This document shows, piece after piece, positions 4,390 to 43,404 of a DNA stretch of 64,000 bases (its first letter is position 1; each line of letters starts with the position of its first letter). Position numbers and translations under genes: made by a program. Below the pieces are notes generated by a model. That model was not told the DNA's origin. It saw only the letters and a program-made list of their open reading frames with translations, and searched no databases. Source of the DNA: Bdellovibrionota bacterium (GTDB lineage Bacteria > Bdellovibrionota_C > UBA2361 > CAKMMH01); contig JAXFOK010000018.1 in NCBI GenBank assembly GCA_034180415.1, positions 12,539-76,538 of the forward strand. Direction: 5' to 3'.

Positions 4390-5175
4390 TCTTTTATAAA
4401 CTTTATAATTTTTAGGGATTTTTATATTAAAAACATCTTGTTTTACGTTGACATCATATTCTTTCTTTGTAACAAAGAAATTCATTAGTAATTCATTTTG
4501 AGGAATTATAACATAAAGCGCATTATTTGATTTTTTGATTCGCATTATAAGTTCTTGTCCATTATCTTTCCAATTATCATAAGTAACTAGTGACAAATCT
4601 TTTAAATTAAATTCATAATATTCATTTTTATTTTTACTTACAATTTGAAGAATCTTATAATCTTTATTTTCTAAAATATAAAAATCATAATTATTAACAT
4701 TATCTTTTGTTAAATTATTATTACCTGCAATTATTTCCATAAGGTTTTTATAATCGATATCTTCCTTCCATATTTCTTTAAATATATTTTTTATATCACC
4801 TGTTTTTATTGCAATCTTTTGCTGCCTATCTAAAAACATAGCCTCATTTTCATTTTGGGTTAAAATATGAAGTGATAAAAATGTTTCAGGAGGAAAAGCT
4901 TCTATACGAACAAATTCTTTTTTATCACTTAAATTTTTATCATATATAAATAAGTATCTAAACTTAAACCCCTCACCTTTTTCAATCAAAATGACATCTG
5001 AAAGGACTCGTACATTATTAAAATTTTTATTATTCTCTACTAATTTGTCAAAGAAAACATTTTTCTGCTTATCAGAAACAATATTTTTACTTATATTGGG
5101 AAATGTAATTTTATTACTTGAAAAACATCCTGTAAAAGATATTAAAATAAATAAAATTAATATGAATCTTTTCAC
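4387..5175 (-). CDS. lipoprotein, function unknown
   Basis: N-terminal signal peptide with lipobox-like FTGC, asparagine/lysine-rich. Confidence 0.6.
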   Translation of the reverse strand: MKRFILILFILISFTGCFSSNKITFPNISKNIVSDKQKNVFFDKLVENNKNFNNVRVLSDVILIEKGEGFKFRYLFIYDKNLSDKKEFVRIEAFPPETFLSLHILTQNENEAMFLDRQQKIAIKTGDIKNIFKEIWKEDIDYKNLMEIIAGNNNLTKDNVNNYDFYILENKDYKILQIVSKNKNEYYEFNLKDLSLVTYDNWKDNGQELIMRIKKSNNALYVIIPQNELLMNFFVTKKEYDVNVKQDVFNIKIPKNYKVYKR

Positions 5176-30301: not shown

Positions 30302-31561
30302 ATGCGAATAAAAAGAGATTTATATCTAAATAAACTAATAAGGCACAAGCATAATGGATTCATAAAAATCATTAGTGGCGTTAGGCGCTCAGGAAAGTCA
30401 TTTTTACTTTTTGAATTATTCAAAGAACACTTATTAGAATCAGGCATTAAAAATGATCATATAATTTCGATTGCATTAGATAACAGAAAGTACGTTAAGC
30501 TTCAAGATCCCGATCTTTGTTATGAATACATAGAATCAAATATTAAAGATAATGATATGTATTATCTTTTTATAGATGAAGTGCAACTTATGAATAATTT
30601 TGAAAGTGTTTTAAATGGTTGCCTTTATATTAAAAACCTTGATGTCTATGTTACTGGCAGTAACTCTAAGTTTTTAACTACCGATATAGTAACTGAATTT
30701 AGAGGAAGAGGCGATGAAATTAAAATCCATCCTCTTAGTTTTTCAGAATATTATAGTGCTGTAAATGGTAGCTGGAACAAAGCTCTTGATGAATATTTAA
30801 CTTATGGCGGGATGCCGGCCTTATTTTCATATGATACACATACCGAAAAAGAAGAATATTTAAAAAGATTATTTTATGAAACTTACATTAAAGATTTAGT
30901 AGAGAGAAATAAAATAAAGAATGAAATCGAGTTTAGTGAACTTTTAGATGTTCTCGCATCAAATATTGGAACACTTACTAACCCTAAAAAACTCTCTGAT
31001 ACTTTTTCTAGTGTACAAAATAACAAAACCATTTCAGAACCAACTATAAAACTTTACTTATCATATCTTTCAAATGCTTTTCTTATAAATAAAGTTTTAC
31101 GATACGATATAAAAGGGAAAAAATATTTAAACACTCCATTTAAATGCTACTTTATAGACACGGGACTTCGCAATGCAAGATTAAACTTCAGACAATTTGA
31201 ACCTACACACTTAATAGAAAATGTCATATATAATGAACTTTGCATAATGGGATATCAAGTTGATGTTGGAAATATTGAAATTAGAGAACAAAACCAAGAC
31301 AAATCATATTCTAAGAAACAACTTGAAGTGGATTTTGTTGTAAATGCTGGAAGTAAACAATACTATATCCAATCTGCTTATATGATGCCAACATTAGAAA
31401 AGCAACAACAAGAAGAAAAATCATTACTACATATTGATAATTCATTTAAAAAGATAATTATTGTAAACGAAGATATTATTCCAAGGCACCAAGAAAACGG
31501 GATTACAATTTTAGGCCTTAAAGATTTTTTGTTAAACAAGAATAGTCTTGATTTAGCGTGA
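30302..31561 (+). CDS. AAA+ superfamily ATPase of the DUF4143 type (predicted ATP-binding protein)
   Basis: 419 aa; Walker A GVRRSGKS, Walker B LFIDEVQ, and the conserved C-terminal region typical of DUF4143 ATPases. Paralog at 59711..60970. Confidence 0.8.
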   Translation: MRIKRDLYLNKLIRHKHNGFIKIISGVRRSGKSFLLFELFKEHLLESGIKNDHIISIALDNRKYVKLQDPDLCYEYIESNIKDNDMYYLFIDEVQLMNNFESVLNGCLYIKNLDVYVTGSNSKFLTTDIVTEFRGRGDEIKIHPLSFSEYYSAVNGSWNKALDEYLTYGGMPALFSYDTHTEKEEYLKRLFYETYIKDLVERNKIKNEIEFSELLDVLASNIGTLTNPKKLSDTFSSVQNNKTISEPTIKLYLSYLSNAFLINKVLRYDIKGKKYLNTPFKCYFIDTGLRNARLNFRQFEPTHLIENVIYNELCIMGYQVDVGNIEIREQNQDKSYSKKQLEVDFVVNAGSKQYYIQSAYMMPTLEKQQQEEKSLLHIDNSFKKIIIVNEDIIPRHQENGITILGLKDFLLNKNSLDLA

Positions 31562-31686: not shown

Positions 31687-33672
31687 CTAGATAGCCTTCT
31701 TTATAGCATCTTTAACTGCGTTAATATCAGCTTTACTTAATGTGATTCCATTAACTTCAACATTAACGCCCTCTTCCCATTTAGGAAGGAAGAATGTACC
31801 TTCAACATAAACTTTATCTTGTAATTTTTCTGAATCAATAAAGTTTAGAACTTGAGAAAGTAAGTTTGTTTCTTCTTTTGTTCTACCTGCAAGAGAAACT
31901 TTAACTGAAACTTTTCCCTCTTTCTTTCCTGTGTTAAAGATATCTACAGAGCTTGTGCTTGTAGGCTGAGAATGATAATAAGTGTGAAGTAAATGATGAG
32001 CTTTTTCTCCACCAATCTCGCCTAAGAACTTCTCATAACAAGCCTTAATATCAGGGTTATCTTGAGAGTTTCTTAATTCCATACTCTTATCATTATTATA
32101 AATCCCAGCACTTCTTTTTTGTCTATAATCAAAGTCTGTGTTTCTGATTTGTCCTGCACCATTTATGCAACCTCCAGGACATGCCATAACTTCAATTAAG
32201 TCATAGTTACATTTTCCAGCACGAATTTCATCGCAAACTTTCTTAGCATTTGCAAGGCCACTAACAAGAGCTAAGCGAATTGTCTTTCCTGCAACAGTAT
32301 ACTGTGCAGTCCTAATTCCCTCTTGTCCTCTAACTTCTACAAAGTCACTATTTTGAAGTTTCTCACCTGTTAATTTCTCTACTGCAAACCTAAGTGCTGC
32401 TTCTGTAACACCACCTGTTACACCAAAAATCACACCACCACCTGAGAAATCACCAAATGGCTTATCAAATTTATCAGGCGCTACTTTCTTAAAATTAATC
32501 CCCGCGCCCTCAATCATTTGAGCAAGTTCTTGAGTTGTTAAAACTACATCTGTGTCACGAATTCCATCATGAGTAAAACGCTCTAATGCTGCTTCGTGTT
32601 TCTTTGCAGTACATGGCATAATTGCAACATTAAAGATATCTTTCTTCTCTACTCCAAGCTCTCCTGGAAGCGCATCCTTAATTACGCCACCAAACATTTG
32701 CATAGGGGAACGACAAGATGATAAATTATCCTTTAAATCAGGATAGAAAAGCTCAACATAACGAACCCACGCTGGGCAACATGATGTAAATTGAGGAAGT
32801 TTCTCTCCCTTAATTACACGATTAACAAACTCTGTTGCTTCTTCTACTATTGTTAAATCTGCACTAAATGATGTGTCAAACACTAAATCAAACCCTAGCA
32901 TTCTTAAACAAGCAGCAATCTTATTTGTTAAAACCTCCCCAGGTTCCTCGCCAAATGCTTCCCCTAGAGATACTCTAACAGCTGGTGCCATATGAACTAC
33001 TGTCTTTTTAGTAGGGTCATTTAATGCAGCCATTACTTTTTCAATTTCATTCTTAGGTAAGATTGCACCTGTTGGACAAACTGCAGCACAACGACCGCAA
33101 AGCACACAATCAACTTCTGATAGTGGTTTATCAAGACATGGTGTTACATACGCATTTGATCCTCTTTTTGCAAAATCTAAAACGCCAATTCCTTGCACTT
33201 CATTACAAGCTCTAACGCAGTTTCCGCAAAGTACACATTTACTTGGGTCTCTTGTCAAAGAATCAGATGAATTATCAATAGGTCTTGGTTTTCTTGTTGG
33301 TTTAAATCTTACATTTTCAACACCTATTACTCTAGTTAATTTTTGAAGCTCGCAAGTGTTATTCTTATCGCATGTTGGACAAGACTTATTGTGGTCTGCA
33401 AGTATTAACTCTAAAGCAACCTTTCTTAGCTTTCTAATTTCATCTGTGTTTGTTAAAACTTTCATACCATCTTGTGGCTTTGTTGTACAACTTGTAACAA
33501 TACGTCCGTCAATATCAACAAGACATAAACGACACGCTCCATATACGCTTAAATCTGCATGATTACAAAATGTAGGAATATCAATTCCTGCTTTTTTTGC
33601 AAGCTCTAATATACTACGCTCACCATTAATAGGAATCTGTTTGCCATTTATTGTAATTATTCCATCACTCAT
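31687..33672 (-). CDS. hydA: [FeFe]-hydrogenase catalytic (H-cluster) subunit
   Basis: 661 aa; N-terminal 2Fe-2S and 4Fe-4S ferredoxin domains; H-cluster motifs TSCCPAW, MPCTAKKHEA and EVMACPGGCINGAGQ. Confidence 0.9.
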   Translation of the reverse strand: MSDGIITINGKQIPINGERSILELAKKAGIDIPTFCNHADLSVYGACRLCLVDIDGRIVTSCTTKPQDGMKVLTNTDEIRKLRKVALELILADHNKSCPTCDKNNTCELQKLTRVIGVENVRFKPTRKPRPIDNSSDSLTRDPSKCVLCGNCVRACNEVQGIGVLDFAKRGSNAYVTPCLDKPLSEVDCVLCGRCAAVCPTGAILPKNEIEKVMAALNDPTKKTVVHMAPAVRVSLGEAFGEEPGEVLTNKIAACLRMLGFDLVFDTSFSADLTIVEEATEFVNRVIKGEKLPQFTSCCPAWVRYVELFYPDLKDNLSSCRSPMQMFGGVIKDALPGELGVEKKDIFNVAIMPCTAKKHEAALERFTHDGIRDTDVVLTTQELAQMIEGAGINFKKVAPDKFDKPFGDFSGGGVIFGVTGGVTEAALRFAVEKLTGEKLQNSDFVEVRGQEGIRTAQYTVAGKTIRLALVSGLANAKKVCDEIRAGKCNYDLIEVMACPGGCINGAGQIRNTDFDYRQKRSAGIYNNDKSMELRNSQDNPDIKACYEKFLGEIGGEKAHHLLHTYYHSQPTSTSSVDIFNTGKKEGKVSVKVSLAGRTKEETNLLSQVLNFIDSEKLQDKVYVEGTFFLPKWEEGVNVEVNGITLSKADINAVKDAIKKAI

Positions 33673-33714
33673 TTAAAAATCTCCTTGTTCTTTTTTTCTT
33701 TTTATATTTTTTTA

Positions 33715-33753
33715 TCATTATAAAGATTAAATACTTCTTATAATCTTTATAAT
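33715..33753. promoter_or_regulatory. perfect 14-bp inverted repeat CATTATAAAGATTA-N9-TAATCTTTATAATG inside the hydrogenase operon, between the NuoF-like and catalytic subunit genes
   Basis: Read directly from the 130-bp intercistronic spacer. Confidence 0.4.
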
Positions 33754-33802
33754 GATATTTTTAAGCTTACTTAAAATTTTTTACCTTTTAAGCAGATACT
33801 TT

Positions 33803-35722
33803 TTAAGCTGATACACCTGAAATTGCACCAAACTTACAAGTTCTTACACAAGAGCCACAACGAATACACTTATCTTTATCGATAGAGTGTGGCTGTTTAA
33901 TTGTGCCAGAAATTGCACCTACTGGGCACTGTTTAGCGCACGCTGTGCATCCTTTGCATTTCTCTTTGTCAATTACAGGTGTTGAAAGTTTAGGGCAACG
34001 ATTAGTTGGACAACGCTTATTAAACACGTGCTCATTTACTTCATCTCTAAAATAACGAAGTGTAGCAAGCACTGGGTTTGGAGCTGTCTTTCCTAATCCA
34101 CAAAGCGAGCTTATTCTTACAGATTTTGCAAGTTCTTCTAATGTTTCGATAGTTTCTGCTGTTGCAGTACCATCAATAATTTCATCTAAAAGATTTAGCA
34201 TCTGCTTTGTACCTTCTCTACAAGGAATACATTTTCCACAAGATTCATTTTGAATAAATTGCATAAAGAATCTCGCAACACTTACCATACAAGTATTCTT
34301 GTTCATTACAACAAGTCCACCAGATCCTACCATTGCACCAACTTTTGGAAGTGAGTCAAAGTCTAATGGCATATCTAAGTGTTCTTCTGTCAAACAACCT
34401 CCTGAAGGTCCACCAATTTGAACAGTCTTAAATCCATCTGGCCAAGGGTTACCGTTATCATCAATAACACCACCACCGATATCAAAAATAATCTTTCTTA
34501 ATGTTGTTCCCATTGGAACTTCAATAAGACCTGTGTTAACAACGTGTCCTGTTAGTGCAAAAGTCTTAGTACCTGGAGAAGTTTCTGTTCCCATTTTTCT
34601 AAATTCTTCTACACCGTTTCTTACGATAAATGGAACTGTTGCTAAAGTTTCCACATTGTTAATTGTAGTAGGAGCTTTCCAAAGTCCAGATTGTGCTGGG
34701 AATGGTGGTTTTGGGCGTGGCATACCACGATGTCCTTCAACTGATGCCATAAGTGCAGTTTCTTCACCACAAACAAACGCACCTGCTCCTTCCATTACGT
34801 GAAGATGTAATTTTAAGCCTGTACCAAAAACATTATCGCCTAAGATACCTTCTTTTTCTGCATCTTGTACAGCACGAGTAATACGTTTAACTGCAAGTGG
34901 ATATTCAGCACGAACATAAAAATACCCTTCGCTAGCCCCTATTGCACGAGCTGCAATCATCATACCTTCGATAACTGCATGAGGATTTCCTTCCATAACA
35001 CTTCTATCCATGAAAGCACCTGGGTCTCCCTCATCTGCATTACATACGATATATTTAAGGTCAGCTTGAACAACTCTTGTTAAATCCCATTTTTTACCAG
35101 TTGGGAAGCCAGCTCCTCCTCTACCTCTTAATCCAGAGTCAAGAATCATTTTACAAACTGCCTCTGGTTCCATATCTAAATAAGCTTTGGCAGCTGCAGC
35201 GTAACCACCGTGAGAAATATATTCTTCAACATTCTCTGGGTCTAAACTTCCGCATTCATTTAATGCAACACGATGTTGCTTTGAATAGAAATCTATTTCC
35301 TTTTTACCTTTACAATGCTTTCCTGTATTATGGTCAACATATAAAAGTCTTTCTATAACTTCACCATGAAGAATAGTTTTTTCAACTATTTCTTTTGCAT
35401 CTTCTGGTTTAACTTTTACATATAAAATTCCATCAGGCTCAATAGATAAAAGAGGTCCCATTTGACAGAATCCTTGGCAACCACTTTTTGACATCCATAC
35501 ACCTTTTTCATTTAACTCTTTTTCTTTTTGAAGCTCTACAACAATATCAAGTCCATTTGCTTTTAATTCTTTACAAACTTCATCATAAACTTTCATTGAG
35601 CCACCAGCCATACAACCAGTACCTGCACAAAGTATGATTCTGCGTTTTACATTTTGCTGAGCTTTAATAAAATTGTCTTTAATTTCCGCTAATTTTGCAG
35701 CATTAATACATTCATTACTCAT
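33803..35722 (-). CDS. hydB: NuoF-like flavoprotein (NADH-binding, FMN, Fe-S) subunit of the multimeric [FeFe]-hydrogenase
   Basis: 639 aa; N-terminal thioredoxin-like 2Fe-2S domain, GRGGAGFPTG FMN/NADH motif, C-terminal CGKCIPCREG and 2x[4Fe-4S] CxxCxxCxxxC. Confidence 0.9.
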   Translation of the reverse strand: MSNECINAAKLAEIKDNFIKAQQNVKRRIILCAGTGCMAGGSMKVYDEVCKELKANGLDIVVELQKEKELNEKGVWMSKSGCQGFCQMGPLLSIEPDGILYVKVKPEDAKEIVEKTILHGEVIERLLYVDHNTGKHCKGKKEIDFYSKQHRVALNECGSLDPENVEEYISHGGYAAAAKAYLDMEPEAVCKMILDSGLRGRGGAGFPTGKKWDLTRVVQADLKYIVCNADEGDPGAFMDRSVMEGNPHAVIEGMMIAARAIGASEGYFYVRAEYPLAVKRITRAVQDAEKEGILGDNVFGTGLKLHLHVMEGAGAFVCGEETALMASVEGHRGMPRPKPPFPAQSGLWKAPTTINNVETLATVPFIVRNGVEEFRKMGTETSPGTKTFALTGHVVNTGLIEVPMGTTLRKIIFDIGGGVIDDNGNPWPDGFKTVQIGGPSGGCLTEEHLDMPLDFDSLPKVGAMVGSGGLVVMNKNTCMVSVARFFMQFIQNESCGKCIPCREGTKQMLNLLDEIIDGTATAETIETLEELAKSVRISSLCGLGKTAPNPVLATLRYFRDEVNEHVFNKRCPTNRCPKLSTPVIDKEKCKGCTACAKQCPVGAISGTIKQPHSIDKDKCIRCGSCVRTCKFGAISGVSA

Positions 35723-36233
35723 TTCCTGCCTCCTTTTTAAGAATTTTATCTAGAAGTGCTTCTACTTTAGCAGGAGACATTTGACCATGAACTTCTCCAT
35801 CAATAACAACAACAGGTGCAAGTCCACATGCACCTAAGCAAGAAACTATTTCAATAGAAAATAATAAATCATCTGATGTATTCTTCCCTTCTTGCATATT
35901 TAATTTTTTTCTTATTGCATTAATAATAGGAATTGATTGCTTCACATGACATGCAGTTCCATTACAACAACGAATTAAATGTTTTCCTTTCGGTTCTAGT
36001 GTGAAATGTGAATAAAATGTTGCAACACCGTAAATACGAGAAGCAGGTATTTTTATTGAATTTGCAACAAACTCTATTATTTCCTTAGGAAGATAATGGT
36101 ATACGTCTTGTATTCTCTGTAAAATTGGGATCAATTTTTCTTCTCTATATTCGAATTCCTCTAATATTTTACAGATACTCTCAAATTGTTGAGTACGGGT
36201 TAATACTTCCCCAGTCTGAGTTCCATCAGTCAT
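35715..36233 (-). CDS. hydC: NuoE-like [2Fe-2S] thioredoxin-like ferredoxin subunit of the hydrogenase
   Basis: 172 aa; ..LIRCCNGTACH....CLGACGLAPVV.. Cys motif; 8-bp overlap with the downstream NuoF-like gene. Confidence 0.85.
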   Translation of the reverse strand: MTDGTQTGEVLTRTQQFESICKILEEFEYREEKLIPILQRIQDVYHYLPKEIIEFVANSIKIPASRIYGVATFYSHFTLEPKGKHLIRCCNGTACHVKQSIPIINAIRKKLNMQEGKNTSDDLLFSIEIVSCLGACGLAPVVVIDGEVHGQMSPAKVEALLDKILKKEAGNE

Positions 36234-36573: not shown

Positions 36574-37779
36574 TTATTTTTTCTTTAACATATCATTTAA
36601 CACTTCACTTAAATTATTTTTGTATATTTCATTAAATTTAACGTCTATATCATATTTAGTTTTAACATCTTTTAAACTTCTAAAAAACTCTAGCAACTTT
36701 CTCTTTGGATAATTTTCTATTATATATTTTATTAAAAACCCACCACCGATTTTCTTAATAGTAACACTCGCACTGTTATCCAATAAATTCAAAATTTTTT
36801 CGTTATAATCCATACCTGTTAATCCGCCAGTTAGGTATGTAACGATTCCATGTACTACCCAAGAATCGACTAAATTATTATTTTTGAAATATTGTATTAT
36901 TAAATTTTTAGTAGCAAATGTCGTAACATATTTAAAGTAATTATCCAATTTATAGTAGCTCTTTCTTGGATTAAACAAATAAAGTGAAGATTGCATTTCA
37001 GAATAATTGTTATTTGCTGAAAGTTCCTCTAAGTATCCCTCTATTAAAACTTTATTATTACTGAAATCGTACTCAAAAAACTCTTCTAGTAATTCTTTAC
37101 ATTCATTAACTCTTTTATAAACTTCTGATTTAAAAGAATTTATTAAATTATTTTTCCCGTTTATTATTACTTCATTACTTTTCAAAAGTTCTTTTAGTAT
37201 ATCTCTCAAAGATTTACCATAAATTTTAATACAGCATTTATTAGTTTCATTTTGAGATTTTATTTTACTTAATAAATCTAAAAATTGTAGAAAATTATCT
37301 TTACTATACTGTTCAATTAAATATTTAATAAATATTCCTGCACCATCATAATAAAGTCTAATATCCGGATTCTTTTCAAAAAGCTTAAACATATTTATTG
37401 ATATATTACAATTTTCAACTTGATTAGATAAATATACTGATAATCCTTCGCAAAGCCACTTAGGTATAAAATGATTTAAATCTGTATAACAATTTAAAAA
37501 CGCATGCGCAATTTCATGTTTTAAAAGTTTAATGTATTCTTTTTCATTATATTCATTTGCTATACTTTCATAACTACAAATATAGACATTATTATTATCT
37601 GTTAGCCCTACAGCAAAATTACTTAATCCATTATTCAATCTATAAAATGAGTTTTTATCCAATATGTGAATAAATATCATATTATCTGTTATTTTAACTC
37701 GAAAAAAATCATTATATTCATCGATAATTTTGGCTATAATGCCATCTAAATTTACATCATTAGATACGTGAAAAATCAT
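36574..37779 (-). CDS. putative zincin-like metallopeptidase with tandem duplicated MA-like domains (first HEIAH..WLCEGLSVYLS, second degenerate)
   Basis: Start moved to the ATG at 37779, which has a perfect AAGGAG RBS. HExxH followed about 20 aa later by WLxEGLxxYLS, a pattern I associate with peptidase MA-like domains. The second half repeats the fold without HExxH. Paralog at 41962..42627. Confidence 0.55.
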   Translation of the reverse strand: MIFHVSNDVNLDGIIAKIIDEYNDFFRVKITDNMIFIHILDKNSFYRLNNGLSNFAVGLTDNNNVYICSYESIANEYNEKEYIKLLKHEIAHAFLNCYTDLNHFIPKWLCEGLSVYLSNQVENCNISINMFKLFEKNPDIRLYYDGAGIFIKYLIEQYSKDNFLQFLDLLSKIKSQNETNKCCIKIYGKSLRDILKELLKSNEVIINGKNNLINSFKSEVYKRVNECKELLEEFFEYDFSNNKVLIEGYLEELSANNNYSEMQSSLYLFNPRKSYYKLDNYFKYVTTFATKNLIIQYFKNNNLVDSWVVHGIVTYLTGGLTGMDYNEKILNLLDNSASVTIKKIGGGFLIKYIIENYPKRKLLEFFRSLKDVKTKYDIDVKFNEIYKNNLSEVLNDMLKKK

Positions 37780-37929
37780 CTTTATTATATCTCCTTGTAT
37801 AGAAAAAGGCACACATAAGAATAAAATTCTTACATATGCCCTATTAGGATAACATACTCCTACTGCTTCCATCATAAAGGAAAGAAAGCAAAACCTTAAT
37901 GGATTACAACTTAGTTTTAGCTATCCTTA

Positions 37930-38154
37930 TTAATCCATGCAAGTGTCGCAAGGCGGCTTATGACAAATGTAACAACATTCTTCACAAAGACCGTGACAAA
38001 CGCAATTACTCGTCTGAGAGTGATTGTTAGCGGAAAATTCGACATCACAACCATCATCGACGCATTGGTTGGAACTCTCAAAAGATAAATTTTTGCTACA
38101 AGCATTAAAGTCATCATCAAAGATGTCCAACACATGAGGATCGAGCGCAATCAT
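37930..38154 (-). CDS. Cys-rich acidic small peptide (74 aa; 11 Cys, C-terminal ..CVCHGLCEECCYICHKPPCDTCMD); candidate RiPP precursor
   Basis: Lies 5 bp downstream of a PqqD-like gene. This frame is conserved in the paralogous remnant at 42901..43019 (MIALDPHVLDIFDDDF.. vs MIVLNSCVIDVFDGSF..). The overlapping 77-aa ORF 37917..38150 was rejected. Confidence 0.5.
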   Translation of the reverse strand: MIALDPHVLDIFDDDFNACSKNLSFESSNQCVDDGCDVEFSANNHSQTSNCVCHGLCEECCYICHKPPCDTCMD

Positions 38155-38158
38155 AGCA

Positions 38159-38540
38159 CTATTCCTTATTAGTAGAGGTTAATGAAACAACATTACTATT
38201 AAGAAGTCTTAAAAAGAACTTCTTATATTGGGTAACAGTTAAGTCGTTAGTAGATACTAACTTTTTTTCAATGCAACTTTCAACTAATTTGTATCCGTCA
38301 ACATCTAAAAAAAGCCAACCACCATTTTCGCTTGGCATTACCGCTCGAAATCTTCCTTTCAAGTTATTACCTTTTGAAAATCAAGAAAACAATCATTAGG
38401 AATTTCTTCTTTTTGAATTTTTATCTTCACATTTTCCTTAAACAACTCGAAAGCCAAATCTTTTGATAAGACATCACACAGAGGATCAAGACCATCAATT
38501 AATCCTGTATTATCCTCTCCCCGATATCGACACCCTCCCC
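38159..38540 (-). pseudogene. PqqD-like RiPP recognition element (RRE) protein, frameshifted relative to the paralog at 43006..43404
   Basis: Two frames give ..GLIDGLDPLCDVLSKDLAFELFKENVKIKIQKEEIPNDCFLDFQKVIT* and (TTG)KGRFRAVMPSENGGWLFLDVDGYKLVESC..FFLRLLNSNVVSL. These align colinearly with the intact paralog, and no ATG precedes the N-terminal part. A shorter product from the internal ATG (MPSENGG..) remains possible. Confidence 0.5.
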
Positions 38541-38546
38541 TACAAT

Positions 38547-39050
38547 TTACAAAGAGCTTGCAGTATTAAAAATATCATGTACATTAAGCTTCGTCGTTAC
38601 CATATTGCATGTAACATCAAAACCATTATTTAATGCACATTTAATCCCGTCAACTGCCTTTTTGAAACCACCTTTCACACCGCTTACCAATTCGTACACT
38701 TCCTCGCATGAACCCATAAACGATGTTAAGATTCTCCTTAAGCCAAGTTCTTTAAGTTCTCTTGCAATATGATCATTAATATATGTCAAATTTGAATTCA
38801 TCGACATATTAATATGATTTTCTTTTGCAAGAATCAAAAGGTGCTTCACAATTTTGTAATTAAGAAGCGGCTCACCACCAGTAATCACGATACTTTTAAT
38901 TTTATGCTTTTTGATTTCACTAAAAAGCTTATTAGCAGTATATAAAGTCATATGACTTGAGTGAACATTATCTGAATAATCCTTATCAAGCCAATCTCCA
39001 CGCCAAAAATTGTAACAATGTTTGCATTTAATATTACAAACACCGATAGC
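38547..39050 (-). pseudogene. radical SAM enzyme remnant (N-terminal core only; SPASM/C-terminal half missing)
   Basis: The track ORF MTLYTANKLF..ITGGEPLL.. is in frame with an upstream CNIKCKHCYNFW (CxxxCxxC). A TAA lies immediately 5' of the motif (..SVQL*AIGVCNIKC..) with no start codon. The protein ends after about 160 aa of rSAM core and overlaps the PqqD-like gene. Confidence 0.65.
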
Positions 39051-39422
39051 TTACAATTGAACACTAAGGGGTACAGTTAATGATTTATATATCTTATTAA
39101 CCCTTTCATTAATTAAAGGTAAGGATAAGAAAACATCTACTCATATTTTTTGTAACCATTTATAAGCGAGAAATATTTCTACGCATAAAAAGGGGCTGAA
39201 TGAAAAAACTAAATTTTATATTTCTTTAAAATCACACACTCTCTAATATATGTACCGAAAATTAATTAAAAAAAATGTTTTTATTTTGGTAAAAAATTTT
39301 AAATTTATTTTTATAAATATTTTCTCTTGGAGTTTATAGCATCTTAATTCAAAATCCTCTACAGAAACAACTTGTAAAAAATTCAAGTGACATTTTGGAT
39401 AAAATCTAACTAAAGATTTACG

Positions 39423-40139
39423 TCAATCAATGTTATTTACCACATCATATATTGCGTACTCTTTATTATAAATTTTAGCCCATTCCCTATCTCCAAAGCT
39501 AAAGTGCCACCACTCTCCATTAAATGGAGCAAATTCATGACGAATCATAAGCTTTCTTAGCATCAATCTATTTTCAAATTGTTCTTTCGTAATATAGGAA
39601 TTTTTTACAGGTAAATATTCTTCTTTATCAAAATCACCAATTTCACATCCCATATCTAATAATGTATCACCAATTTTTATAGATAAATCGATAGCCCCGC
39701 CTGTTGTATGCCCCGCAACTTTTGGATAAGCAATCATTAAATGAGTTTTTTCAATTTGTTCATCTTGAGATAATAAAGGAAACTTTGCTTTTATATCGTT
39801 AAAAACTTTTTTAAAATTTTCTTCCTGTATTTTTGGATGTCTATACACATTTGAAACCACTAATGAAGCATCTTTATTTATATTTAGTAGTTCTTTGCTT
39901 ATTTCATCTAATTTTTCTGCAATTTCTTTTCTTCCATAGAAAAAAAGATTTCTTATTTCATTATTGTTATCACTAATTGAAAGATACTTTGGAATTCTAA
40001 ATTCAATATTAGGGTTTACCATATCTGGTAAATAGACTAACTCTTTAGAGCTTTCATTAACATTAATAATTACTAAATCAGAAACTAAACTAAAAGTTTC
40101 GAAATCATTTAGTACATAATCATATAATTTATTATCCAT
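39423..40139 (-). CDS. VanX/DdpX-like D-alanyl-D-alanine dipeptidase (peptidase M15D)
   Basis: 238 aa; motifs YRHPKIQ, AGHTTGGAIDLSI (SxHxxGxAxDL) and EWWHF characteristic of VanX-type zinc D,D-dipeptidases. Confidence 0.8.
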   Translation of the reverse strand: MDNKLYDYVLNDFETFSLVSDLVIINVNESSKELVYLPDMVNPNIEFRIPKYLSISDNNNEIRNLFFYGRKEIAEKLDEISKELLNINKDASLVVSNVYRHPKIQEENFKKVFNDIKAKFPLLSQDEQIEKTHLMIAYPKVAGHTTGGAIDLSIKIGDTLLDMGCEIGDFDKEEYLPVKNSYITKEQFENRLMLRKLMIRHEFAPFNGEWWHFSFGDREWAKIYNKEYAIYDVVNNID

Positions 40140-40255
40140 AGTCTCTATAAATTAAATAAAAAAATGCAAGCCACTAGGATAGTATAATTTAATGGTTTTC
40201 ATATGTCACGATTTCTACCAATAAAGCAGAAGATACAACATTTAGAGAAGATCTC

Positions 40256-40849
40256 TTAGTGAAGAGACCTCCGAACCATGAAAATCCGCCTATCTCTTAC
40301 GGGAGCATCGCCAAGTCTTCGCTGACTGACGTATTCTTTCGTCCCGTCAAGGAGCGAGAATCCAGATTTGAGGAACAGGTTCTTCGATGCGACATTTTTT
40401 TCTGTCGTACGAACAATCATGTTCGTATCAGGATACTCTTCCTTAAGCTTGTTAACAAGACAAGCAGCGAACCCATTACCACGCCACTCGGGAGCAGTAA
40501 GGATTTCTGCGACATAAAGATAATTTTGAGGCTCATCAATATTATCTTTAATCGCCTTTAAAACCTTCTCTTCATGTTCCAGGTTGTATGCCACCAAATA
40601 GCTATAAACTTGCCCGGTGGACACATCAACAAGAGCAAAGATCGAAGAATTAGGGGTGGACCACTTTTCCTTTGCAAGTTTCATGACATCGTCATGAGTA
40701 AACTTTTCTTGGTAAGGTGGCGCACCAAAACAAAGAACATACAGGGAGGTATACTGCGATGACGAATCACCGAAAATGGCCTCAGAAATCTTGACGATTT
40801 TCACGGCCTCCCAATCCAAGCACGACATCTTTTGGGTTTGTCGTTTCAT
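40256..40849 (-). CDS. GNAT-family N-acetyltransferase (GC-elevated)
   Basis: 197 aa; acetyl-CoA-binding motif ..VAEILTAPEWRGNGFAACLV.. and ..EKNVASKNLFLKSGF..; coding GC clearly above the background. Confidence 0.75.
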   Translation of the reverse strand: MKRQTQKMSCLDWEAVKIVKISEAIFGDSSSQYTSLYVLCFGAPPYQEKFTHDDVMKLAKEKWSTPNSSIFALVDVSTGQVYSYLVAYNLEHEEKVLKAIKDNIDEPQNYLYVAEILTAPEWRGNGFAACLVNKLKEEYPDTNMIVRTTEKNVASKNLFLKSGFSLLDGTKEYVSQRRLGDAPVRDRRIFMVRRSLH

Positions 40850-40924
40850 GATAAAACCTCATATGTTTTATAATGGGAGTTAACGACTAGAAAATCAAAA
40901 GAACACTTTTCCCTTTAAAACTTT

Positions 40925-41788
40925 CTAATCATCTAAGAACAATTCTCCTTTAGCTATCACATCTACGATGCCTCCAATTGAGACACTTTCAACATACAAA
41001 GCATCAGAAGATAACCTAACTTCTAACTCGATTGATTTCTTAGACGGTTGATATATCCGTTCCTTAAAATCTCTCTTGTTATTCAACGCGCTTACTATAC
41101 CAAATGCTGCGGTTCCTGAACCGCATGCTGTTTCATAATATGTACTATCGGTATCTCGTACCCAAACGACAGGATTAATAAAAACCCCATTATCATTTTT
41201 TTGTACAAATATTAATCCTACTGCACTTTCATTTTGTAATTCCAAACTATCTCTCACATGTTTTGAGAATTCGACATAATTATCTTTTCTGAACTTAAAG
41301 TGTGGTTCATTCAAAATAACGTGAGTAATACCACTAAGATAAGTAACAAAAACTTTGTAGCCATCTAAAAGTTTTTCTTCAACATGATTTTTAGTTGAAA
41401 GATAAACTTTAGTATTTATTTTACTCCCGTCCCTAAAACATTCACCTTTAACTTTTTCATTAACCCCAGAAACAGATAAATAGCATTCCCAATGATTTTC
41501 ACCAATAGACTTTAATGATTTTGAATCTTCAAAGAGTAAAAGCGCCAAGACGCTTCTTGTAGCATTTCCACAAAACTCTCCACCCATCATATCTAGTCTT
41601 GGAGTACCCTCTTCAAGATAACTTACGACTCCGACCTGCTCTCCACCAAGATGCAATGGGTCTAGAATCTTATTTGAAATCAAAGCACGGTATCTAGCAT
41701 CCATTGAATCTTTATTTTTAATGAGAACCGTCGTGTTTCCACTAGGGCTCATTTTATAAAAGCTGTACGTAGTCATAACAAAAAACAT
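40925..41788 (-). CDS. DapF-family PLP-independent amino-acid epimerase (diaminopimelate-epimerase-like, two catalytic Cys)
   Basis: 287 aa; ..SGNTTVLI.. (GNDF-like), ..GGEFCGNATRS.. (QCGNGARC-like) and ..YETACGSGTAAFGI.. (ETxACGSGAxA-like) give both DapF active-site cysteines. Confidence 0.7.
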   Translation of the reverse strand: MFFVMTTYSFYKMSPSGNTTVLIKNKDSMDARYRALISNKILDPLHLGGEQVGVVSYLEEGTPRLDMMGGEFCGNATRSVLALLLFEDSKSLKSIGENHWECYLSVSGVNEKVKGECFRDGSKINTKVYLSTKNHVEEKLLDGYKVFVTYLSGITHVILNEPHFKFRKDNYVEFSKHVRDSLELQNESAVGLIFVQKNDNGVFINPVVWVRDTDSTYYETACGSGTAAFGIVSALNNKRDFKERIYQPSKKSIELEVRLSSDALYVESVSIGGIVDVIAKGELFLDD

Positions 41789-41961
41789 CCTTTCTTTTAC
41801 AAGAAATATGATCTTCTATAGGAGGTATCGAATTTAAATTTTAAAAGTTGCTTAAAATCGATAAAAATTTTCAAAAATTGATATTTAAAGATATTTTTAT
41901 TAAAAAATGATAAAGAAAATTACATGGTTACATGTAATATATTTCTGATGACTTTTTAATT

Positions 41962-42627
41962 TTACTTATTATTTTCGCCTAATATTTCATTTAAAACTTC
42001 TTTAATATCTTTATTGTAATGTTTCATAAATATAATACTTACTTCATTGCTACTCTTAAGATTTCTTAACTCATTGAAAAATTCTAAAAATTTTTTATTA
42101 CCATAAGTTTCTATAAGATGTTTTACAAAGATTCCCCCACCTTAATAAATTACATTTGGTAAAATATTATCATTAAATAATGTTTCCAAATCTTTACAAA
42201 CTTCGCCACTTATCATCTGTCCTGATAAATATCTTGCTAGTCCTTCATGCAACCAATTTGGAACGTACTTATTAAAATTAACATACATATACGCATATAC
42301 ATGTACTATTTCATGTTTAATTAATTTTTTATATTCGATATCGTTATATATATTTTTTATATCATCATGATTACAGATAAAAATAATATTAGAACGAGGG
42401 CAAGCAAACGCTACGACATAATCTTCCTTAATACTTTTAAATTCATCAAATATTTCTTTTTTCATTGAAAAAACGCAAACACTAAATTCATCATTAGGAA
42501 TATTAAAAAAAACTGAATATTCTTTAGATGTTTCTTCTATACATTTATTAAGTTCTATATCATTATTTGGAAAAATATTATAAAGCATACTATCTCTCAT
42601 TAAAAAAGAGCAGGGACAAAAAATCAT
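41962..42627 (-). pseudogene. single-domain paralog of the MA-like metallopeptidase, interrupted by a frameshift/stop at about 42142
   Basis: The track ORF (..LIKHEIVHVYAYMYVNFNKYVPNWLHEGLARYLSG..) stops at 42142. The next frame continues with ..GGGIFVKHLIETYGNKKFLEFFNELRNLK..NEILGENNK*, which matches the C-terminal part of 36574..37779. The first codons lie inside a terminator hairpin. Confidence 0.55.
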
Positions 42628-42635
42628 CCCTGCTC
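42602..42635 (-). terminator. rho-independent terminator on the minus strand (GAGCAGGGA-loop-TCCCTGCTC + T6) between the RRE/peptide module and the peptidase paralog
   Basis: Perfect 9-bp stem followed by TTTTTT on the transcribed strand; the annotated ATG of the peptidase paralog sits in the loop. Confidence 0.5.
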
Positions 42636-42900
42636 AAGCAAGCTGTTATCAAATTTCTAGAAATTTTACTCTGCCTTTAACGACGATAAAAACCTTATTC
42701 ACGGTTTAAGCCTCTTAAGGTGTAACACTGTTTCATTGAGGTTCACCATCAACACAAATTCTTTAGCAAAGTTCAAAGTATTCAAAATTACGGCCCACAT
42801 GGATCTTGCGATCAACAATACTCAAAACTTGCGGATTGATTTCTTTTATCTTAGCACTCCTTATGTTAGAACGATTAACATCACCATTGTAATAGCAAAC

Positions 42901-43019
42901 TCAGTGACAGATATGCCGGTAGCAATTACAACCACAGTAAAATGCATTATGAAATTCTAATTACTAGCTTTAAAGCTACCATCAAACACATCAATAACGC
43001 AAGAGTTAAGTACAATCAT
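42901..43019 (-). pseudogene. remnant of a second Cys-rich precursor-like peptide (broken by a stop and a frameshift)
   Basis: MIVLNSCVIDVFDGSFKASN* then, in the adjacent frame, ..EFHNAFYCGCNCYRHICH*. The N-terminus parallels the leader of the 37930..38154 peptide. It overlaps the PqqD-like gene end by 14 bp. Confidence 0.4.
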
Positions 43020-43404
43020 AACGTTGTTCCTTATGACTAGGGGTTAATGAAACTATATTACTGTTAAGAAGCCTTAAGAAGAACTCCTTATTTTCAGTAA
43101 TTACCTGAGCATTAGTAGACACTAATACTTTTTGCACACACTGTTCTATTAAGTTGTAACCATCAACATTTACAAATAGCGACCTACCATTTTTACCTAG
43201 TATTACAGCACCAAAGTCTTCCTCTCGAGTTACCACTCCTTCAAAATCAAGATAGTAATCATTAGGAATTTCTTCCATATATTTTATCTTAACCTTATTT
43301 TTACTATATAACTCAAGAGAAATATCTTTCGAAGATACCTCAAAAAGCGGATCAAGTCCATCGACTGACTTCTGAAAGCTACCTTTTCCTAAAATAAATA
43401 TCAA
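43006..43404 (-). CDS. PqqD-like RRE protein (intact copy; probable true start at internal ATG 43278, giving about 90 aa)
   Basis: ..DFEGVVTREEDFGAVILGKNGRSLFVNVDGYNLIEQCVQKVLVSTNAQVITENKEFFLRLLNSNIVSL.. fits the PqqD/RRE pattern (V..RE.DGG.LL.n..g..f.LN..G..IW.......T...I......FL..L...GLI). The annotated start is TTG without an SD. Confidence 0.55.
   Translation of the reverse strand: MIFILGKGSFQKSVDGLDPLFEVSSKDISLELYSKNKVKIKYMEEIPNDYYLDFEGVVTREEDFGAVILGKNGRSLFVNVDGYNLIEQCVQKVLVSTNAQVITENKEFFLRLLNSNIVSLTPSHKEQRYDCT

Follow-up and report, generated by a model that had tools for sequence, protein, structure and literature searches.

Does the short Cys-rich open reading frame (ORF) at 37930..38154 on the minus strand of a 64,000-nucleotide stretch of Bdellovibrionota DNA encode the precursor of a modified peptide, and is that precursor still in use? 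The stretch (GenBank assembly GCA_034180415.1, contig JAXFOK010000018.1, positions 12,539 to 76,538 of the forward strand) was analysed at its full length and is called the window here. An original prediction, made from the sequence, had proposed that this ORF lies directly downstream of a PqqD-like gene and encodes a modified-peptide precursor or, alternatively, a metal-binding peptide. In this study, we found that the ORF, designated ORF A, is probably one of three paralogous precursor genes of a compact three-gene cassette for a peptide that ribosomes make and that is then modified post-translationally (RiPP). The copy in the window is likely a decaying relic, and the presumably active cassette lies outside the window.

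Coding signature of the 74-residue ORF

ORF A translates exactly into the 74 amino acids (aa) quoted in the original prediction. The product, peptide A, has the leader motif MIALDPHVLDIFDDDF at its N-terminus and a Cys-rich, acidic C-terminal part with CDTCMD as the final residues. Eleven of the 74 residues are Cys, and the ten in 45 residues that had been predicted were seen in one stop-free stretch. Six-frame reading of the window gave 129 ORFs with 50 aa or more, of which ORF A has the highest Cys fraction, and at least 11 Cys in 74 codons would be expected by chance with P ~1e-5, as calculated from base composition. The GC content of the gene is 40% vs 30% for the window. A Shine-Dalgarno sequence, AAGGA, is located 8 nt 5' of the ATG, and the reading frame upstream terminates 4 nt before the ATG. 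In a comparison of copy A with its intact paralogue, locus C (see below), the ratio of non-synonymous to synonymous changes (pN/pS) was 0.52 in the annotated frame, whereas the other two frames gave 1.12 and 1.15 and contained stops. These values contradict the possibility, raised with the original prediction, that the overlapping alternative frame is the conserved one. The identification of a precursor-peptide gene is based on the translation, the same-position homologues described below, this frame-specific coding signature and the Cys enrichment.

Peptide A and four homologues matched no Pfam or NCBIfam family at E <= 0.1, SCIFF models included. Because no such model fits, the proposal that the peptide defines a distinct precursor family is reasonable. 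Homology searches with peptide A, by word index and by a complete HMMER run over 1.84 billion representatives, retrieved near-identical alleles only; two further matches, the repeat proteins P0008 and P0009, were spurious. A motif scan of the window for more hidden precursors found none besides copy A, and the broken copy B described below was found separately.

A conserved three-gene cassette

Relatives of ORF A were reached through homology of the peptidase encoded beside it, not of the peptide. Metagenomes and genomes were scanned with peptidase alignments, and the matches were filtered by tblastn with the radical S-adenosylmethionine (SAM) protein. When the full peptidase alignment was used, the initial scan of genomes gave no match. 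A short alignment of the catalytic motif did give matches, most of them to unrelated MA peptidases and largely in Chloroflexota, and these were subjected to the same tblastn filter. The loci L024, L028, L032, L033 and L069 were added by the filtered scans.

Nine cassettes were thus compared, namely window copies A and B, locus C (contigs L018 and L112-L119), L020, L032, L028, L024, L033 and L069, and they come from gut and groundwater bacteria. The order of genes is conserved in the nine loci: a radical SAM/SPASM enzyme with a C-terminal extension of ~110 aa, a small acidic Cys-rich peptide, and an HExxH protein. The arrangement is intact on the contigs of P0006 and P0007, where the enzyme has 451 aa and its last ~110 residues correspond to the fragments that had been called PqqD-like in the window. 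In the intact arrangement, the peptide gene begins 4 nt past the stop codon of the enzyme gene. The peptide gene is kept beside the enzyme although enzyme identity drops to ~30%. The original prediction had proposed a search for homologous short ORFs next to radical SAM genes in other genomes, and such ORFs do occur in these cassettes.

A homologous peptide takes the same place in L018/L112 (64 aa), L020, L032, L028, L024, L033 and L069, with identity down to ~20%. An AT-rich subgroup consists of window copies A and B, locus C, L020, L032 and perhaps L028; the leader P-x-V-L-x-(I/M)-F-(D/E)-D-x-(F/Y) is common to all six, and a two-domain peptidase is encoded at locus A, locus C, L020 and L032. 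An environmental subgroup, comprising L024 (Hainich groundwater), L033 and L069, has a single-domain peptidase, the leader ...S(E/Q)FF.D...(L/F)NR.FD.S..N.P.R.MD and the core end ...SC(Q/H)N(T/S)GCNK. Core length is variable, as is the number of Cys (2 to 10), and conservation across the peptides is confined to the leader and the final few residues. A conserved leader with a variable core is usual for RiPP precursors. These comparisons indicate that ORF A is a genuine member of the precursor family of an unnamed variant of radical SAM/SPASM RiPP cassette.

One observation concerns L033, from an uncultured bacterium, in which the cassette is directly followed by a 119-aa ORF (4403..4762) with an N-terminal membrane helix and an ectodomain rich in Cys and Asp/Glu.

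The maturase gene adjoining peptide A

The maturase adjoining peptide A is dead. Using tblastn with P0053, the 451-aa enzyme of locus C, together with six-frame reading, we located the N-terminal part of its pseudogene at 38556..39092 (minus strand), where residues 1-179 of the intact homologue are matched with 69% identity. The start codon of this part is replaced, and an in-frame stop occurs at codon 14, just ahead of the cluster motif CNIKCKHC; the motif is still legible, but the stop codon precedes it. A 134-aa ORF within this region (38547..38951) matches Pfam Radical_SAM at 1.4e-17. Residues ~180-311 of the enzyme, which form most of the SPASM domain (~132 codons), are deleted. The SPASM end, together with the beginning of the C-terminal extension (residues ~312-378), is found at 38362..38562 (minus strand) in a frame that differs from that of the N-terminal part and ends in a stop. 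The rest of the extension is found at 38162..38353 (minus strand) in the third frame, with 63% identity to P0053 residues 382-443. The lesions of pseudogene A are two stop codons, a frameshift and the deletion of ~132 codons, and they are common to all strains examined.

The PqqD-like gene of the original prediction, 38159..38362, is not a gene of its own but what remains, after a frameshift, of residues ~382-443 of the radical SAM/SPASM protein, which has 451 aa when intact. This ORF has no Pfam or NCBIfam match. A PqqD or RiPP recognition element (RRE) nature of this ORF was not supported either, since it showed no Pfam match, an hhalign probability of 0.15% vs PqqD and no significant structural match. 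In L018, L033 and L024 the same region is fused to the radical SAM/SPASM protein and is not stand-alone.

In a sister lineage (L005 7790..9334; also L007, L008 and L009), an insertion sequence (IS) element with a DDE_Tnp_1 transposase of 514 aa is inserted in the already broken pseudogene A. This lineage also has a 1-bp frameshift in the peptide gene.

An intact cassette in the same genome

A third cassette, locus C, is located outside the window and is intact, with the 451-aa enzyme and a 64-aa peptide (L018). The NCBI records of its proteins are MDD7473738/MDD7473737 and MDY6089631/MDY6089632, and those of the window proteins are MDD7473786-795 and MDY6090139/MDY6090147. Loci A and C have the SPJ04_ locus-tag prefix in common, and their MDD numbers are ~50 apart. 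Because the accession series and the locus-tag prefix agree, both loci were placed in two independently binned metagenome-assembled genomes (MAGs), which NCBI labels as "Pseudomonadota bacterium" (GCA_028724725.1) and "Bdellovibrionota bacterium" and whose source is animal gut.

Locus C shares 67-75% DNA identity with copy A. It is widespread, with the major peptide allele on 143 contigs, and the peptide is well conserved with no Cys lost. The organism thus most likely has a working cassette, locus C, outside the window. The leaders of peptides A and C are very similar (MIALDPHVLDIFDDDF vs MVVLNPKLNPQVLGIFDDSF), and so are their C-terminal ends (CDTCMD vs CDKCMD).

Cassette C was always on short contigs (<=17 kb; L112-L119), and once (L115 515..1501) it adjoins an ORF6N-domain antirepressor-like gene, which hints that its context is mobile or repeat-flanked. 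A scan of viral contigs for the intact maturase gave no match.

Decay and strain variation at locus A

Fifteen intact alleles of peptide A were retrieved, among them Cys-loss variants with C72R (three alleles) and C36Y. Two alleles are frameshifted: P0003 has a 1-bp deletion and was seen on 22-25 contigs of the IS-bearing lineage, and P0002 has an independent 4-bp deletion on one contig. Cys19 of the window allele is derived and private; Ser is found there in every other strain and in paralogue B. With singletons left aside, 8 of the 74 residues of peptide A were polymorphic vs 0 of the 64 residues of peptide C, and the figure was ~0.005 per site for ParC, peptidase A and enzyme C. We relied on non-singleton counts because the sampling of distinct sequences inflates the diversity values of short proteins. 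Constraint on the peptide A gene appears to be relaxed, and the gene evolves far more rapidly than those around it.

Since the maturase is dead, sister strains carry frameshifts and Cys losses, and evolution of the peptide is fast, copy A is read as a relic rather than an active precursor. It is most likely a relic of a duplicated cassette, not yet destroyed. The prediction of a modified-peptide precursor is thus supported at the level of the family, as represented by the nine cassettes, and probably does not hold for this copy, which has a dead maturase and a peptide gene that is decaying in sister strains.

Several observations weigh against this reading. An intact 74-aa allele of peptide A is retained on ~70% of the contigs seen. 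Between-strain synonymous and non-synonymous counts were too small, so that pN/pS is uninformative for peptide A, and high diversity of RiPP cores can equally reflect diversifying selection. The 1.2 kb of peptidase A are free of lesions, whereas <1 kb of the enzyme gene took 4-5 of them in the same span of time; by a Poisson estimate, escape of the peptidase from lesions without selection is unlikely (<1%). Because peptidase A is intact beside such a lesion-laden gene, part of locus A may still be in use. In addition, the recognition role of the C-terminal extension, considered below, gained no clear support in any sequence or structure test run.

Alternative explanations for ORF A

Peptide A may instead be a working orphan precursor that is matured in trans by P0053 of locus C and whose leader is cut by peptidase A, so that one maturase would give two products. 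We regard this as the less likely reading. The leaders and C-terminal ends of peptides A and C are alike, the intact enzyme is present in the same two MAGs, and peptidase A has stayed intact in almost every strain though the adjoining enzyme is long dead. The ribosome-binding site and the hairpin described below are also kept at locus A, and most alleles keep the 74-codon frame. However, a working precursor fits poorly with frameshifted alleles of two independent origins, one of which is common, with alleles that lack core cysteines, and with non-singleton amino-acid polymorphism far higher than in peptide C and the neighbour genes. Moreover, at the lesion rate of the enzyme pseudogene, a 225-bp ORF would escape lesions by chance about one time in three in the Poisson estimate.

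More doubtful still is a broader proposal, in which the cassettes would form an undescribed radical-SAM peptide family with a C-terminal leader-binding module, an MA-clan leader peptidase and hypervariable acidic Cys-rich cores. This family would be shared by reduced-genome gut Bdellovibrionota-like MAGs and groundwater bacteria, with one maturase still serving orphan peptide A.

It is very improbable that ORF A encodes an unmodified Cys-rich metal-binding or redox peptide, metallothionein-like, without a radical SAM enzyme. The content of Cys, Asp, Glu and His is high, and the ORF persists without a functional neighbouring maturase, as such a peptide might. However, no metal-binding family was matched, every relative sits between radical SAM/SPASM and peptidase genes, Cys count and spacing are not conserved (2 to 10 Cys), and Cys-loss and frameshift alleles occur. 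The metal-binding alternative of the original prediction found no positive evidence. That ORF A is open merely by chance, in DNA that is non-coding or decayed, and has at no time been a peptide gene can be practically dismissed, because, although spurious ORFs of 70-100 codons occur in the AT-rich window, same-position homologous peptides down to ~20% identity, the ribosome-binding site, the frame-specific substitutions and the extreme Cys enrichment all speak against it.

The reading that we prefer remains that of ORF A as one member of a set of three paralogous precursor genes, left behind in a decaying copy of the cassette. On this reading, the three copies in one genome represent the life cycle of a cassette, which is intact at locus C, reduced to peptide and peptidase at copy A, and almost erased at copy B. 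They also provide a warning for genome mining, since a convincing precursor beside radical SAM fragments may be inactive and a 'PqqD-like ORF' can be an artefact of pseudogene decay. Copy A of the window would not be the first choice for expression. The cassette itself, with three genes in ~3 kb, is a compact target for heterologous expression, and we know of no natural product from the uncultured gut and groundwater host lineages.

Peptidase A and the intergenic hairpin

Between the precursor and peptidase genes lies a terminator-like hairpin (37806..37842, minus strand) with a 17-bp stem followed by a T-run and a fold z-score of -3.95. In the intact cassette, a hairpin of other sequence occupies the same position (L112 2335..2366). 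On the 3' side of the copy A hairpin, a Shine-Dalgarno sequence, AAGGAG, precedes the likely true start of the peptidase gene. The mechanical ORF of the peptidase would have 433 aa and extend to 37875, reading through the hairpin; the start annotated by NCBI, which gives 401 aa, is likely the true one.

Peptidase A (36574..37779, minus strand) is accordingly described as an intact HExxH (Peptidase_MA_2) protein of 401 aa, on the basis of Pfam PF13485, same-position homologues and the NCBI start. The Pfam score is a narrow pass, 33.9 vs a cut-off of 32.4 bits. The N-terminal half contains HEIAH...WLCEG, and the HExxH...WLxEG catalytic region is conserved in the homologues. The C-terminal half appears as a degenerate repeat of the MA domain without HExxH, which is 30% identical to the N-terminal half of a homologue and has WVVHGIV where WLxEG is expected. 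Homologues in the same cassette position are P0006 (51%) and P0007 (37%). Judged from the HExxH motif, the downstream Glu motif and a Pfam score over the gathering threshold, peptidase A is assigned to peptidase clan MA.

Copy B and neighbouring genes

A copy of the whole cassette, copy B, is located at 41884..43404 and is more eroded than copy A. The sole remaining piece of its radical SAM gene, at 43033..43359 (minus strand), corresponds to the C-terminal extension, with 51% identity to P0053 residues 335-443. It lies inside a 132-aa ORF (43006..43404), upstream of which there is only tsaB, and a search with this ORF matched only the ORF itself. The precursor gene of copy B (42766..43019, minus strand) is broken. 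Its leader, MIVLNSCVIDVFDGSFKASN (42960..43019, minus strand), ends in a stop, and the Cys-rich continuation, EFHNAFYCGCNCYRHICH, is in another frame at 42904..42957 and then at 42766..42900 with a further stop. The broken paralogue with a leader-like N-terminus described in the original prediction therefore exists. The HExxH peptidase pseudogene of copy B (41884..42588, minus strand), detected by tblastn with the intact peptidase at 38% identity, keeps HEIVH...WLHEG and has several in-frame stops downstream; its matches to MA/HExxH models in Pfam and NCBIfam are weak.

Three intact genes lie between relics A and B (39423..41788, minus strand). They encode a CntK/HisR-like histidine racemase (NCBIfam 1e-35, under the cut-off), an acetyltransferase of the GNAT type and a VanX-like D-Ala-D-Ala dipeptidase (M15), and they are not present around the intact cassette. 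The GNAT protein was compared with that of the Clo7bot cluster, a Clostridium botulinum system considered below, and the two are unrelated. Therefore, the racemase, GNAT and M15 genes were not counted as members of the cassette.

Directly downstream of copy A is a three-gene HydABC-type [FeFe] hydrogenase operon (31687..36233, minus strand), which encodes a NuoE-like protein of 172 aa, a NuoF-like protein of 639 aa and a hydrogenase of 661 aa. Between strains its pN/pS is 0-0.11, which reflects strong purifying selection. Further along, at 30302..31561 (plus strand), an AAA_14/DUF4143 ATPase is full-length in the window strain (419 aa), whereas two sister strains, L005 and L006, have a truncated form of 249 aa. 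The truncation is a further mark of gene decay that is still in progress in the lineage.

Enzyme family and C-terminal extension

The enzyme matches Pfam Radical_SAM at 2.8e-22. Its cluster motif CxxxCxxC reads CNISCKHC in P0053 and CNQICRHC in P0077, and it starts at residue 18-19 in both proteins; an N-terminal recognition domain (RRE) is therefore absent. P0053 and P0077 also contain C-x(n)-G-x4-C and Cx2Cx5Cx3C, the motifs for the auxiliary clusters of the SPASM domain, and TIGR04085 scored below its threshold on the L020 enzyme fragment (22.4 vs 27 bits). No NCBIfam radical SAM family reached its cut-off with the intact maturases. The best families were AhbD, NirJ2, GeoRSP, WgkB, ScmE and PqqE, with 70-120 bits vs cut-offs of 380-650, and the PapB model (NF047865) gave 67.3 bits vs 340. 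TIGR03974, the SCIFF maturase model, was not one of the 25 best-scoring families, none of which exceeded 98 bits. The closest solved structures were those of MoaA, PqqE, SkfB and CteB (E 1e-6 to 2e-4).

The predicted secondary structure of the C-terminal extension, three strands followed by helices, is compatible with an RRE, and the AlphaFold models reach a predicted local distance difference test (pLDDT) score of only 44-45. The second of these low-scoring models (pLDDT 44-45) has the order strand-strand-strand-helix-helix over residues 58-116. Extensions of five members had no match in Pfam, PF05402 included, and only weak winged-helix signals appeared, each in one member (GntR 0.043 and PaaX 0.073). 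The hhalign probability of 0.15% was obtained against a three-sequence PqqD alignment, and a profile search of PDB sequences found nothing. In Foldseek, no PDB entry was below E = 1, and the RRE of PbtF (8t19) ranked 8 with E 2.7. Because these tests were negative or without clear signal, we state as an inference, drawn from position and analogy, that the C-terminal extension may act as a leader-binding module.

In the proposed pathway, the enzyme would dock the conserved acidic leader, probably by the C-terminal extension, and would use three Fe-S clusters to cross-link core Cys to other residues. For the type of cross-link, our best guess is a thioether like those of sacti- or ranthipeptides, as judged from the families involved (PMC8326336). 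The HExxH protein, a putative cytoplasmic MA-clan zinc peptidase, would then remove the leader. All three steps, namely docking of the leader, formation of thioethers and cleavage by the HExxH protein, are thus inferred.

Comparison with known systems

The cassette resembles the SCIFF/ranthipeptide systems (CteA-CteB and freyrasin PapA-PapB) and the sactipeptides in that a short Cys-rich precursor is encoded beside a radical SAM/SPASM maturase. The chemistry of these systems is the best established for such cores. As in freyrasin, acidic and polar residues lie close to the cysteines, and in freyrasin Cys is linked to Asp (PMC8326336). However, the precursor fits no SCIFF model and the maturase misses the PapB cut-off. 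Unlike the SCIFF/ranthipeptide enzymes, the maturase here has a C-terminal extension and no N-terminal RRE, and the cassette has a dedicated MA-clan peptidase.

The Clo7bot system of Clostridium botulinum, which has a TIGR04334 maturase, is similar in having Cys-rich peptides, a radical SAM/SPASM maturase and an MA-type HExxH peptidase directly downstream. A complete Clo7bot locus is found at L075 655..4321 (Clostridium botulinum ATCC 25763, NZ_LHUL01000004.1), where the maturase ends in CSQQGCCCE and no NCBIfam model covers the peptidase. This peptidase is 38% identical to the window peptidase over 80 catalytic residues (E 1e-7). Since an MA-type peptidase independently follows the maturase of this Cys-rich system, the suggested role of the HExxH protein as a leader peptidase is supported. 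However, the Clo7bot maturase is only ~21% identical and belongs to a clade with an N-terminal recognition domain. TIGR04334 gave 852.6 bits vs a cut-off of 600 with the L075 control and was absent among the 25 best families for P0053 and P0077. In contrast to the single peptide here, Clo7bot has seven tandem precursors of 34-48 aa with a basic MK(F/Y)I leader, followed by GNAT and ABC exporter genes. A literature search found no experimental work on the Clo7bot system, and no publication that mentions the assembly accession or links PF13485 and radical SAM was found. A review of RiPP leader peptidases lists M1, M16, M61, M103 and M50 metalloproteases, and the passages of it that a term search brought up tie no metalloprotease to a radical SAM peptide system (PMC10885120).

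The short radical SAM/SPASM enzymes AhbD, NirJ, GeoRSP, ScmE, PqqE and MftC form the best-scoring group; the alignments span the radical SAM and SPASM regions, and the start near the N-terminus is the same. PqqE, MftC and GeoRSP act with a PqqD-type recognition protein. Unlike in this group, the partner here is a Cys-rich peptide with a peptidase, and the scores (98-120 bits) are far under the cut-offs of 265-650 bits. The putative recognition module is fused C-terminally and is not detectably PqqD-like.

Proteusin radical SAM epimerases have no SPASM domain, one cluster and long nitrile-hydratase-like precursors, and no sequence similarity between them and the enzyme here was detected. A C-terminal RRE has been reported for these radical SAM RiPP enzymes (PMC8326336). 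The cassette thus differs from known Cys-rich radical SAM/SPASM systems in its uncurated precursor family, in an extension that is C-terminal and not N-terminal, and in having an MA-type peptidase of its own.

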